62,000 bases of DNA from Lama guanicoe (lineage: Eukaryota): contig MU053652.1 in assembly GCA_013239625.1 (NCBI GenBank), positions 1,240,001-1,302,000 on the forward strand, in the 5' to 3' direction. The notes under the pieces were generated by a model. The model saw only the letters and a program-made list of their open reading frames with translations. It was not told where the DNA came from and did not search any database. Made by a program: the position numbers and the translations under genes. Below, one piece after another: positions 6,241 to 61,784 of the stretch. Position 1 is the first letter of the stretch; each line of letters opens with the position of its first letter.

Positions 6241-6672
6241 AAGTTATATTTTAGTCATTATTGACATGGCTGTTATGACCTATAAATGCAGATGAATGTT
6301 GGGAATTGAGTCATATTTCCATCCTTTGACTAGTATTTTGTTTCCAAACCACAGTAATATGAAAATTCCAGTTAGAAGTGCCTTACAGTCCTTTCTCCAC
6401 AACTTTGTGGTTTGGGGTATTATTTAACTGGTTTCAGTAAATCCTGCTCTTGTTGCCCTCTTAATGCTTATTTTTAAGGTATAGTATCTGCAAATGAGGC
6501 AAGTCCAGTAATTGTGCAGACTATCCATTCATTGGATTAGATTCTAATTGTACTCTAACTTTGAACCAAGTTCTCTGTGAGATTCTTTAGATTAGGAACT
6601 TCCCTTTATAGAAGATGTGGAGGTAAGTCGTCATTTGGTCTGAACTTGCTACTTGATTTGTTTCACATATTT

Positions 6673-6829
6673 ATTTTATTTTTTAAAGTTTAATTTTTTA
6701 TATTTTTGGGGGAGAGGTAATTAGGTATGTATTTACTTGTTTATAAATAGTGGAGGTGCTGGGGACTGAACCCAGGATGTTGTGCATGCTAGGCACACAC
6801 TCTACCACTGAGCCATACCCTCCTCCCCC
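6673..6829 (-). mobile_element. Camelid tRNA-derived SINE (Vic-1 type) with TSD
   Basis: Reverse strand GGGGGAGGAGGGTATGGCTCAGTGGTAGAG..CCTGGGTTCAGTCCCCAGCACC (A and B boxes), then ACCTAATTACCTC and an A-rich tail. TSD gtttcacatattt (6660-6672) / gtttcatatattt (6830-6842). Confidence 0.92.
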
Positions 6830-7019
6830 GTTTCATATATTTTTAAAAAGAAGAATAATCAAATTGACATGTTGATGCAACTTGCAGATTTGATTCCTAA
6901 ATGTGTTTGAATGTAGACCACACAGTGTTTTCTTTAAAACTAACACTCACTTTTTTTTTTTTTTGGTACCTCTTGGCACAGACGTGTGAGTTTCTAGTAA
7001 TTTAAAAATTCTGGTGAAT

Positions 7020-19647: not shown

Positions 19648-19702
19648 GTAAGAAAGGAAAGTTAGAAAGTAAGAAAGGAAAGTTAGAAAGTAAGAAAGGA
19701 AA
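19648..19702. repeat. Perfect 21-bp tandem repeat, 2.6 copies (gtaagaaaggaaagttagaaa)
   Basis: Copies at 19648-19668, 19669-19689 and a partial copy at 19690-19702. Confidence 0.95.
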
Positions 19703-45040: not shown

Positions 45041-45920
45041 CTCTCAGTCTGATGTGTATGTTTGTTAAAAACAAGTCTTATTACTTGATGATGTTACAAA
45101 ATTTATGTATTATTTACTTACTCACTTGTTTTTGTATTTGCACCTACCTCTTTTTCCCAGTGGCTGTGTTTGTGACTGCCTCTAGGATCATTGTCACATT
45201 TTTATTTTATGATGATAGTCCTTTTGGAGTTTTCACTTATATCTTTATATCATATTTGAAATATAATAATTAAACTGACATACAGGAGGAAATAAAATTT
45301 TACTCAGTGTTTAATTATGTAAATTGGCTACCTGATTTTTTTCTTTTGGAGTTTAACATTTGAAAATGAGCAGCAAAGTTTTTATACTTACCTTAAATGT
45401 AATCATCATGTACATCCATATTATCAAATGCAATGATATTATAGTATTATCAAATAGGTGGTATATTTATTGTACTCTCTCTCAACTTACATTGCTTGGA
45501 AAGTATAACTTTCAAAAATGAAGTGTTCAGCTATTACACTAAACATTTGAGACTTTCTATATCTGTTAATATAAAACTTAATGATACTTATTAAACTTAA
45601 AAATATCTGTGGTTCTCTTTTCTTTATTTGTTTTGAACTTGAGCAGTATCTCATCCTTCAAGGCTATAATTTAGAAAATTTCTATTTTACATTCTTACTA
45701 CCGTTAGAGTTTTTGGTTTTTTTCCCTGAACTTCATGTGTAAAGTTTGAAAAGAAAGTGAAGATGCTGTTGAATTGGCTTTGGCGGGCAGGCAGGTAGGA
45801 AGTAAGGAAGGAAGGAAAATAAATTAGTACAAAAGCCAAAAAGGTATGCTTAGATATTAAGATAAAAGTAACTTTTGTTTCTGGAATTTCGTGCTGCATG
45901 ATTTATTTCAATTAATTTTT

Positions 45921-46272
45921 TTTGTTTATATATATATTTTTATTGAAGTATAGTCAGTTTACAATGTTGTGTCAATTTCTGGTGTATAGCCTAATGCTTC
46001 AGTCGTACATGAACGTACATATATTTGTTTTCATTTTCTTTTTCACCCTAAGTTACTACAAGATACTGAATATAGTTCCCTGTGCTATACAGTATAATCT
46101 TGTTGTTTATTGGGTTTTGTGAGAATTTTCCTGTATTTTGAAGTGAGAGGCACTGCTAGAGTTGAGTAGGTGTTCTTTGTGAGTCAATGGGTTTGTAGAT
46201 GTAATTCTTGATGTATTAGTGGGAGAGAGTGAGCTATGAGTCTCTCTACTCCACCATCTTAGCCCCTTCCTC
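45921..46272 (-). mobile_element. Bipartite L1-derived element: L1 5'UTR start (46111-46272) fused to L1 3'UTR end and A-tail (45921-46110)
   Basis: The reverse strand starts GAGGAAGGGGCTAAGATGGTGGAGTAG (L1 5' terminus with YY1-type motif) and ends ATAAACAACAAG..CTGTATAGCACAGGGAAC..CTATACTTCAATAAAAA. Perfect 13-bp TSD tcaattaattttt (45908-45920 / 46273-46285). Confidence 0.85.
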
Positions 46273-46521
46273 TCAATTAATTTTTGATTAAGACAATTAT
46301 GCTTTTGACTATTGTAACACATAAAAAGTTCAAAGCACTCATTGTAGTGATTAGCCATACATGTAAGAAAGCTGTTTTACTGGAATATTCTTTTGTCTGC
46401 TTACTTTAAAAAAGCGTGCTTTATTTTACATAAAAAGCAACAATCTTCATTAGATTTTCTAATATTTTAACAGAATGGTCTGTCTTGTAAATAAATACTC
46501 ATTAGATCATGTCTGAGATTT

Positions 46522-46974
46522 TTTTTAACATTTTTTATTGATTTATAATCATTTTACAATGGTGTGTCAAATTCCAGTGTTCAGCACAATTTTTCAGTCA
46601 TTCATGGACATATACACACTCATTGTCACATTTTTTTCTCTGTGATTTATCATAACATTTTGTGTATATTTCCCTGTGCTATACAGTGTAATCTTGTTTA
46701 TCTATTCTACAATTTTGAAATCCCAGTCTATCCCTTCCCACCTTCTACCCCCCTGGTAACCACAAGTCTGTATTCTCTGTCTGTGAGTCTATTTCTGTCC
46801 TGTATTTATGCTTTGTTTTTGTTTGTTTGTTTGTTTTTGTTTTTTAGATTCCACATATGAGCGATCTCATATGGTATTTTTCTTTCTCTTTCTGGCTTAC
46901 TTCACTTAGAATGACATTCTCCAGGAGCATCCATGTTGCTGCAAATGGCATTATGTTGTCGGTTTTTATGGCTG
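46522..46974 (-). mobile_element. Young camelid-type L1, 5'-truncated
   Basis: L1 3' end hallmarks (ttccctgtgctatacagt, tagattccacatatgagcgat, ttacttcacttagaatgaca, catccatgttgctgcaaatggc). Perfect 18-bp TSD agatcatgtctgagattt (46504-46521 / 46975-46992). Confidence 0.95.
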
Positions 46975-48999: not shown

Positions 49000-50480
49000 T
49001 TGTAGAAAAATTTTTACCAGTAGTATTGAAAAAATAAAACACTTGTATCCTACAATTTTTGATGACTACCATTAATATTTTATGTATGATCCTCATGTTT
49101 TAACCACTGTATGTACAGGTGTACACACTTATGTGCACACACATGCACACACTTTGTGGGAGTTTGAAGGTTGGGTAGAAGAGGACAAGTGTGGGCTCAT
49201 TTTGTACTACTATTTCAAAACCTTTAATGCAACAATATAGTGTGAATATTTTTTATGTATATTAATACTCTTCTATAGCAGTCTTTTTATAGATACAGTA
49301 TAGTCTGGATATTTGACCATTTCCCTATTTTTTGGTATTTATGTTTTTTTCTCCTTCTAATATTATGAGCAAACTCAGAAGAAGAATATCCTCTTGACTA
49401 AATCTTTGCTGATATGCATGATGTATTTTCTGTTTTTCAATAAATTTCTGGAAGTAAATTTGTTGGATGAAAGGGTGTATTTTAATGTTTTTATCTTCAT
49501 ACACACAAACACACATGCAATTTTCTCTGCAGGAAGTTTGTATCAGTTTATACTCGTATTAGCCTATTTCCTTGGTCACTAACCAGCATTATAATTTCTT
49601 TGATTACTAACTTGAAAATGAAACAGGATCTCGTTTTTATTTGTTGTTCTTAGTGGGAAGAGAGAGAAAGAGACAGACACACATACATAGACACACACAT
49701 AGAGTTAATTTGAATTGCTCATTCTTAACCTGTTTTCAGTTTACAGTACTGTTTTAAAATATTTTTATGTTTTAATTTGTAGATTATCAAATCTATTGGC
49801 CTTTTTTATAATAATTATATGCTTAGAGAGCTTTGTCTGTAAGATTTATTTAAATAGTATTATTTATACTTTCGTGTTTTCAACTTTTTAACTATGAAAT
49901 TTTTATTCAACCTTGTATTTATTTTGGCTTATGGTATCATACTAGGTTTTTCTAGAAAGTTTTGCCAGTATCAGTGTTTTGAATAATTTATCCATTCTCC
50001 TTAGAGGTATCTTGTTTTTTTTTTTTATACCAGGTTCTGATATAGAATTAAGGCTATTTCTGGCATTTGAATTCGGTTCATTTGGTATGTTTACCAATTC
50101 TTGAACCAGTACCACACTATTAAATTACTGTAGATTTACACTTCAAAAAATATTTGTTATACTGTATAGCACAGGAAGTACATTCAATATCTTATAGTAA
50201 CTTATGGTGAAAAAGAGTATGAAAACGAATATATGTTTGTTCACGTATGACTGAAGCATTATGCTGTACACCAGAAATTGACACATTGTAAACTATGCTT
50301 CAATGAATATACATATACACAAAAAAATTTGTCAAAGCCATTACCCAGTGACTACCATTAATTTTCAGAATTTTTTCAAAATCTATGCTGATCTATCTAT
50401 TCTTCAAAATGAACATTACTCCCTTTTCATTAATTATTTTAATATCCAAGCCCTTTGGTTATTCTTTGTGCATTGTAATA
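49000..50480 (-). mobile_element. Degraded L1ME-type fragments
   Basis: ttctggaagtaaatttgttggatgaaaggg, ttgaataatttatccattctcc, ttcttgaaccagtaccacactattaaattactgtag. Confidence 0.65.
50157..50322 (+). mobile_element. Short camelid-type L1 3' end inserted into older L1
   Basis: tatactgtatagcacagg..ggtgaaaaaga..gactgaagcattatgctgtacaccagaaattgacac. Approximate TSD aaaaaatatttgt / aaaaaaatttgt. Appears to be the same subfamily as 45921-46110. Confidence 0.88.
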
Positions 50481-59343: not shown

Positions 59344-61266
59344 CTCTGGAAGGAAAATATCCTTTATATTGTTAGGGCCCTAGAACATTTTAGAAGTTAC
59401 TTATGATAAATTCTGTTTTAAATGCCCATCATTGAAAAACACCCTTCTCATGCAGATGTGTATGTGTATAGCATGCTGAGTACACTTCTAGAATTGCTTG
59501 GTCCCATTTTCTTACAAAACTTCGGCAGAACTGACAGCAACAAGACAGAGTTACTGGTGTTGAATTTGAAACACTACAATGAGACCAACAGCAGATCCTA
59601 TGGAAAAATGTTGCAACAAATGTGATTCAGTTGGCAAATGAATAATAGCATTTTTGAATTTGAAAAATAACAAATCCTTTTAAATTTTAGGATATTTCTG
59701 CCTGTCATTGTCATCTCCCTTAGACCTGCTTAACATTTATGAAACTGATCAAGACCTAGGCTTATATCTGATTCTGAAAGTGACACCTATAGTCCCAAAC
59801 ATCCACACTCTGGAAGATTCTTGTGTCAGCCTTGCTTCTGCTTTTTGCTTTTCCAGATGACACAGAACAGAAAGGATCAGCTGGGAGTCCCTCAAAGCCC
59901 AACGATTAAATGGAATTACAGAAGGTATTCTGAGGCAGGAAACAATGATTTGATGAAGAGACTCAATGGGAATATTTTTGAGTCTCTTAGATTTTTACAG
60001 AGTTTGATAAACCAGGGCTATAATATAAGCCATGGTTTGGAAGAGAAACCCAGGTTGAAAAACTGAAAAGGAGGTCCCTAAAATTTTGTAGGATGGAAAA
60101 AAGAGAAATTTTAGCAGAAAAGGTTTGCGTGCTAATAACAAGGCTGATTTGAAATCCTGTCCTCCCAGCACTTTGATACACATCTGTCGGTGGTCCGTCT
60201 TTGACTTCAAACCCTGTATGAGCTGGCTTAACTTTCGAATCCTGACTAAAAGGGAACAGCTGGAGGTGGCAGGTTCAGTGGTCGTGCGTGACAGTGATTG
60301 GCTCCCAAGTTGCGTGGGCCAATAAGCAGTTCCTTCCAGGGTGGAGACCGAGGGAAGCGCCTTGCTTGTGCCTTGTCTTAGTGTCTGCATGTCTTTGACA
60401 AGTGAACAATAGGATGCACTGTTTGATTCCAGACTGTCTTGCTTCTTTGCTGTGTCCCTCCTGCAGTCTTTCTCTTTTTATGTCACATTACGTGAGGTGC
60501 TCATCACCTCTCTTTCTTGACCCTGGGCTCCAGTGTTCATTGGTCGTGCTCACCCAGGATGTGCTCTAATTGGCAAAACTGTAACCTGGTAGCAGCAGCC
60601 CGCTCTTTCCATTTCCTAATTGGTGTCGGGGGCGGCTGGTGGAGCCCAGCCATGCTGGATTGATTGATAGATTGGTCGCTGTGACCATCAAGCTTCCATC
60701 TGGCCAACAGGTTTATTCCTTTTGAAACTAAAAATTAAAATGTTAAATATATCCTACAGTGTTCGTAGTGGGTCTGAAAGAAAATCAGCTCTTTATCATT
60801 AAGGAGCCACTTTCATTGTTACCTGAAGGCCCCTTGGGTTTGCAACTTGAAGTTTTGTTCTCTTTCTAGTACACAGCTGGCTGTTTTCTTGCTTTCATAA
60901 TGCAGTGTAAAGCTGCGTTATGTTTCACACCGCCTGCTGCACAGTGGGTTTCTTCATTTCAGAAGTAGTGCAGACATGGTGTTAAATATGTGTGTTTGGG
61001 GTGGAGATGGGGGTGGCATTGAAGACCTGATTCTTACAGAACTTGAAATTTACAAGCTTATTTACATTGGTCAGTGAGAAGGTATTGTTATGTTAAAGAT
61101 GAATTATAAGAAGAGCAAAGTGATACAAGTTCTTTTTTAAAGGCTATTTCATGTAGTTGACATTTATATTGACAATATAACTGAGCATTTAGGCATTTGA
61201 GTGTAATATAATGACCGTTTACCCAAATTAATGCTGAAGTTACAGGCTACAAAATGCTGCATTTTA

Positions 61267-61784
61267 TTTATTTATCTATCCATTTATTTTTTATTGAAAT
61301 ATGGTTGATTTACAGTGTTGTGTTAGTTTCTGGTGTATAGCATAGTGTTTCAGTTTTACATATATATGCATATTCTTTTTCATTATGGGCTATTACAAGA
61401 TATTGAACATAGTTCCCTATAAGATCTTGTTGTTTATATATGTTATATATAGTAATTGGTATCTGCTAATCCCCAAATCCCTAATTTATCCCTTTCCCCC
61501 TTCCCCTTTGGTAACTGTAAGTTTGTTTTCTGTTTTGTAAATAAGTTCACGTGTATCATTTTTTAGATTTTACATGTAAGTGTTATATGATATTTGTGTT
61601 TCTTTGTCCAACTTCACTTAGTATAATAATTTCTCGGTCCCTCCATGTTGCTGCGGATGGCATTATTTCATTCTTCTTTTATGTCTGAATAGTATTCCTG
61701 TGTGTGTGTGTGTGTGTATGTGTACGTGTGTATGTATTGATATTGATTGTATATATATATATATCACATCTTCTTTTTCCCAGG
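61267..61784 (-). mobile_element. Cetartiodactyl-type L1 3' end, 5'-truncated, with TSD
   Basis: ttattgaaatatggttgatttacagtgttgtgttagtttctggtgtatag..ccctttggtaactgtaagtttgttttc..ccatgttgctgcggatggcattatttc. TSD atgctgcatttta (61254-61266 / 61785-61797). Confidence 0.93.

Follow-up and report, generated by a model that had tools for sequence, protein, structure and literature searches.

Human spliced integrated L1s (SpIREs) carry a precise internal deletion which starts at a donor in the 5'UTR, and they retain a target-site duplication (TSD) of 6-25 bp, an A tail and an endonuclease site (Larson 2018, PMC5860796). The consensus for that site is 5'-TTTT/A-3', and one group, SpIRE97/622, comprises 116 copies with one junction (PMC5860796). 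Other L1 splice products have been described, among them one SpIRE reactivated by a host promoter, and none of those in the available text of the two reports joins the 5'UTR to the 3'UTR (PMC2896524 and 10.1101/2025.02.02.635956). Bipartite non-autonomous LINEs in which the open reading frames (ORFs) are absent are represented by Bov-A, RTESINE, RIME, NARTc and the Vingi derivatives (Kojima 2018, PMC5786205). In giraffe, two L1 variants, L1-1A_Gir and L1-1B_Gir, have been termed large deletions in a paper whose main text contains the letters "splic" 0 times (PMC8620236).

The stretch of DNA analyzed here (the window, 62,000 nt) contains a mini-L1 element of 352 nt on the minus strand at 45921-46272. 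Read in its own direction, 162 nt of an L1 5' end (46272-46111) are followed directly by 190 nt from an L1 3' end (46110-45921), and the junction reads CCCA/ATAAAC at 46111/46110, the slash marking the breakpoint here and in the L1 sequences below. An earlier note on this DNA had described a 162-nt 5' segment joined to about 190 nt of 3' end, and the sequence bears this out. Elsewhere in the window, three L1 3' ends match the 3' part (84%, 74% and 72%); no match to the 5' part was found elsewhere in the 62,000 nt. By eye the 5' segment resembles the starts of the published pig L1B and giraffe L1-1 consensus sequences, and a 30-nt block of it is identical to pig L1B12 at 25 of 30 positions. The motif AAGATGGCGG lies near the start of both the giraffe and the pig consensus sequences, and its counterpart at 46251-46260 (minus strand) is presumably a YY1 site. 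No frame is open across the element, which agrees with the note's statement that both ORFs are absent. The predicted RNA fold was unremarkable (z = -0.40, with 35/100 shuffles as good). A blastn search with the element against plasmids and phages gave no match, scans with L1 5'-end or 3'-end motifs gave 0 matches in the viral, metagenome and genome contig collections searched, and five motifs sought in paper texts gave no match. The features of the element are collected in Table 1.

Table 1. Features of the mini-L1 element and its target-site duplication, with positions in the window.
Feature	Position	Strand	Evidence
TSD copy on the element's 5' side	46273-46285		13 nt, 100%; 0/20,000 random pairs
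TSD copy on the element's 3' side; endonuclease-type site TTTTT/GA in the empty allele	45908-45920		Direct repeat and random-pair test
L1 5'UTR, first 162 nt from L1's own 5' end; putative first exon	46111-46272	-	Sequence; by-eye likeness to pig L1B and giraffe L1-1 5' ends; many other contigs aligning
L1 start motif AAGATGGTGG at +13 to +22, conserved; C-to-T change relative to AAGATGGCGG	46251-46260	-	Sequence
Junction, putative exon-exon joint; base 46111 is G in many other copies	46110-46111	-	Contig tables
L1 3'UTR, last 172 nt, with AATAAA at its end (45944-45939); putative last exon	45939-46110	-	72-84% to three window L1 3' ends; ordinary L1s continue upstream with AG
A-rich tail, decayed, merging into the A's of the TSD	45921-45938	-	Sequence

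The whole unit is bracketed by a perfect 13-bp direct repeat. Among random position pairs at similar spacing, a repeat of at least 10 bp occurred in 5/20,000 and one of at least 13 bp in 0/20,000, and the perfect 13-bp TSD claimed earlier was thereby confirmed. On the + strand the empty site reads TTTTT/GA, which is a variant of the 5'-TTTT/A-3' consensus. The locus thus shows the hallmarks of target-primed reverse transcription, with a TSD within the 6-25 bp range, an A tail and an endonuclease site.

Contigs from four of 24 listed runs (X1, X14, X15 and X16, of which X1 and X14 are DNA runs) were aligned to 45760-46450 at 80% likeness, and 32 of the 83,790 pieces, picked by length and not randomly, were listed. 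Twelve of these 32 cross the junction 46110/46111 and extend 31 letters or more beyond it in both directions, and 11 of the 32 are bridging pieces from other loci (records 4-7 of X1, 11-14 of X14, 22-23 of X15 and 31 of X16). The recurrence of the junction, which the earlier note had proposed as a check, was therefore observed. Records 11-13 of X14 duplicate records 4-6 of X1, and at least 5 distinct junction loci are present in X1 and X14 among the pieces listed. The eight other-locus pieces for which a difference was computed diverge from this copy by 12.3-17.5%, and record 4 of X1 aligns ungapped over 200 nt. These loci are known from junction-bearing contig pieces in which their own TSDs lie out of view. 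Flanking sequence stands at single-copy depth (12-18) and two long contigs, of 11,146 and 1,734 nt, match solely inside the element, which argues for separate insertions; segmental duplication was ruled out on the same grounds.

At position 46111 a G is carried on the sense (minus) strand by 28 contigs in X1, 21 in X14, 7 in X15 and 6 in X16, and this G accounts for 41% (X1) and 47% (X14) of the depth of contigs covering this base. A T is found at 46112 in 9 contigs of X1 and 9 of X14 (17% and 31% of depth, respectively). The junction dinucleotide is a decaying CpG, and CCCA here is a decayed CCCG, as had been supposed from the single copy. An excess of CA over TG at this CpG was dropped as evidence because other CpG sites were equally biased. 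At 46114 two letters coexist in the DNA runs (63-69% versus the rest). The summed junction depth divided by single-copy depth comes to 89-116, a ratio which is not a true copy number, and the number of copies can be put roughly at dozens to about a hundred. In X1 the junction depth (1,771) is, by a rough estimate, 0.04% of the 3'UTR peak bin (3.99 million). A comparison of junction copies with unspliced 5' ends (depth ratio 46112/46127, 0.70-0.74) was discarded, as this copy's own changes bias which contigs align, and the use of X15 and X16 as proof of transcription was abandoned since contigs cannot show transcription. None of the 15 joints listed is that of an empty allele, but with 39 further joints beyond this listing and the TSD repeats skipped, no weight was placed on this.

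The locus itself was also recovered from the runs. Over 370 nt X14 shows no change. The coverage in X15 and X16 comes from a contig that reaches from the 5' flank across the TSD, then the 5' segment and the junction, and stops 30-34 nt into the 3' segment, short of the 3' flank; it differs at 10 positions (2.7%). As the junction is present at this locus in runs 2.7% diverged, both the insertion and the junction are older than the split from that organism, and the 12-17% by which copies differ speaks for an old burst. Likeness to the pig and giraffe L1s places the element in the even-toed ungulate lineage.

With respect to the 3' breakpoint, the best-supported loose end of the alignments in all four runs lies directly behind 46110 (709, 753, 174 and 241 contigs). 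The consensus of these loose ends carries AAAATAG immediately before the junction on the sense strand, with an agreement of 0.59-0.68 over 30 letters; AG thus directly precedes the 3' breakpoint in ordinary, unspliced L1 3'UTRs. The neighboring L1 at 46707-46696, a different subfamily (74%), reads GAATAG/ATAAAC exactly as the earlier note had reported. A third copy, at 61437, reads ACATAT/ATAAAC and has no AG. The AG taken by that note as an acceptor is thus upheld by the loose ends and by one window copy spanning the site, the neighbor, and is lacking in the other. AG makes up about 5-7% of dinucleotides across the L1 copies of the window. Upstream of the acceptor A and T predominate, and 7 of the 17 nt at -20 to -4 of the loose-end consensus are pyrimidines, which confirms the weak pyrimidine tract that had been conceded as a caveat. 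The acceptor is weak and has no pyrimidine tract, and this is the main point against splicing.

The neighboring L1 is a 453-bp 5'-truncated L1 at 46522-46974 (minus strand) flanked by a perfect 18-bp TSD (46504-46521/46975-46992), and it lies 236 bp from the element in the same orientation. An older L1 3' fragment at 61261-61700 (minus strand) is 72% alike to the element's 3' part and has no AG at the acceptor-homologous site. The L1 3' end at 50157-50323 (plus strand), 84% alike to the same part, starts 13 nt downstream of the junction and could be either a truncated L1 or a truncated mini-L1.

The donor side was compared with published L1 consensus sequences by eye. Pig L1B reads CCACATAACTGG/GTAGAA (at 4 places in the file) where the element has TCACAAAACCC followed by A or G at the breakpoint, and 8 of 12 positions are alike ungapped when the G of other copies is counted. 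The conserved block upstream and the breakpoint lie 47 nt apart in pig and 42 nt apart here, and the length difference upstream amounts to 3-5 nt. Giraffe L1-1 reads AAAAGAG/GTAGGA at +163/164, and the deletions of L1-1A and L1-1B both begin at this homologous donor, GAG/GTAGGA (PMC8620236, supplement 2). L1-1A resumes after a long pyrimidine tract ending in TTCAAG and L1-1B after CTCTAG. Both variants are cut GT-AG from the homologous donor, so that in a related L1 this site acts as a donor for splicing. From the GTAG which the pig and giraffe L1s carry at the homologous position, the parent L1 would have had GT after its 5' breakpoint; the GT donor postulated in the earlier note is thus supported indirectly, by related L1s compared by eye.

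Taken together, we consider it highly probable that the ends-only L1 originated by splicing. As to how the copies arose, our preferred reading, held with moderate confidence, is that they formed repeatedly from full-length L1 transcripts by 5'UTR-to-3'UTR splicing and were mobilized in trans, each copy being a dead end like a processed pseudogene. Splicing of a full-length L1 RNA would link base 162, next to the 5'UTR donor, with the sequence behind a cryptic AG in the 3'UTR, and the whole coding middle would be removed like an intron, presumably by the spliceosome. The short polyadenylated RNA would then take L1 proteins in trans, as the loss of both ORFs implies, and target-primed reverse transcription would insert it. 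An RNA of about 350 nt would be copied past the junction almost every time, so that a rare splice could leave about a hundred copies, and the junction depth, only some 0.04% of the 3'UTR peak, calls for no more than a rare by-product. Several points weigh against a splicing reading besides the poor acceptor and the AG absent from one of two window copies. The GT is taken by eye from other species in the face of the upstream length difference, the intron would span several kilobases with stronger acceptors skipped, and human SpIREs which need help in trans are few (11 SpIRE97/976; Larson 2018, PMC5860796).

A second account shares the splice origin and differs in what followed: one or a few early mini-L1s would have kept the internal Pol II promoter and been copied in trans as a SINE-like, ORF-less L1 family. 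The element does begin at L1's own 5' end with a conserved start motif, copies are many despite the weak acceptor (the 28 X1 contigs with G at 46111 and a depth ratio of about 100), and giraffe L1-1A and L1-1B, which are cut at the homologous donor, were common enough for consensus sequences to be derived. Human SpIREs, however, are dead ends whose promoter activity is lost (Larson 2018, PMC5860796), junction copies make up only about 0.04% of L1 3' ends by depth, and no change specific to such a family emerged. The two letters at 46114 further indicate more than one template, which would be natural under repeated formation, and self-propagation appears to us rather unlikely.

It is improbable, in our judgment, that splicing played no part and that a single deletion, whether by template switch during reverse transcription or at the DNA level in a source L1, produced a shortened master which was then amplified in trans as proposed for Bov-A/RIME-type elements. 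The poor acceptor context would fit such an event, and bipartite non-autonomous LINEs are generally held to arise by internal deletion (Kojima 2018, PMC5786205). This account would have to explain, however, why one breakpoint falls on an AG and the other, judged by homology, on a GT donor that two giraffe L1 variants have used. The ambiguity of the breakpoint amounts to one G only. No insertion at the junction is listed among the aligned copies, which indicates that the 3-nt TAG common to donor and acceptor was not used as microhomology; it is not kept. Loss of the middle of one full-length L1 after insertion at this locus, a caveat of the earlier note for which nothing speaks beyond the structure of a single copy, is excluded in substance and can be given hardly any credence, as other loci, whose flanks are unrelated, have the identical junction, and so does this locus in the runs that have diverged by 2.7%.

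With respect to genomic context, a rough exon scan of the window returned 6 weak candidates and no host gene. From 2001 to 50000 the + strand has a steady excess of G over C and mostly of T over A, as in a long intron transcribed on that strand; were the window such an intron, the element would be antisense to its host. A tRNA-derived SINE-like repeat with an A-rich tail lies at about 6670-6830 (minus strand), and it may resemble the camelid vic-1 SINE. The Rfam tRNA match at 6751-6822, within this repeat, is the only Rfam match in the window, and none falls in the element. A 71-nt T run, 97% pure, at 1189-1259 is perhaps the tail of a young minus-strand retro-insertion, and a perfect 21-bp tandem repeat of 2.6 copies was observed at 19648-19702.

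If splicing was its origin, the element would add even-toed ungulates to the primates as a source of L1 splicing fossils, and would do so in an extreme form in which both genes are gone. Short copies with one fixed junction allow two questions to be tested directly: with what frequency L1 proteins work in trans on an L1 RNA that has no ORF, and whether splicing can seed a non-autonomous family within the L1 clade. In pig and giraffe the donor seems to be conserved, and splicing from it would account for the two published giraffe "deletion" variants as spliced copies. If self-propagation were true, the element would represent a bipartite non-autonomous family of the L1 clade, a clade absent from those listed in the relevant part of Kojima 2018 (PMC5786205), and a SpIRE would then be the birth of a SINE-like L1 parasite and not a dead end. 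The abstract and the non-LTR section of a camelid transposable element survey (PMC8605555) do not mention the element. No description of a 5'UTR-to-3'UTR spliced L1 family was found in the literature searched, which lay outside Repbase, Dfam and Belancio 2006.

This locus is an old, multicopy, ends-only L1, most likely born by splicing, and several known systems share some of its properties. By the SINEBase definition (PMC3531059) it resembles a SINE in being shorter than 700 bp and non-autonomous (352 nt, no ORF), but a SINE has a head derived from a small RNA and an internal Pol III promoter, whereas the head here is an L1 5'UTR, and it is therefore not a SINE in that sense. HAL1 is also a non-autonomous bipartite L1 derivative but keeps ORF1, while this element has no ORF (PMC5786205). 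As in the ORF-absent bipartite LINEs, for which Pol II transcription and mobilization in trans are presumed, only LINE 5' and 3' ends are present, without an ORF and in many copies. Those treated in Kojima 2018 (PMC5786205), however, belong to the RTE, Ingi, Vingi and R2 clades only and are ascribed to internal deletion, whereas here both halves are L1 and the element was probably splice-born. The deletions in L1-1A_Gir and L1-1B_Gir start at the homologous donor and end at an AG, but lie within the 5'UTR and leave both ORFs in place (PMC8620236); these two variants look like unrecognized intra-5'UTR SpIREs. With the SpIREs the element has in common a precise internal deletion, which here probably starts at a 5'UTR donor, a TSD, an A tail, an endonuclease site and one junction at many loci. 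In the described SpIREs the acceptor lies in the 5'UTR or at the start of ORF1 and ORF2 is retained (PMC5860796), whereas here it would lie in the 3'UTR and both ORFs are gone. Unlike the human SpIREs, this element is 352 nt long, is found outside primates and would need both proteins in trans.
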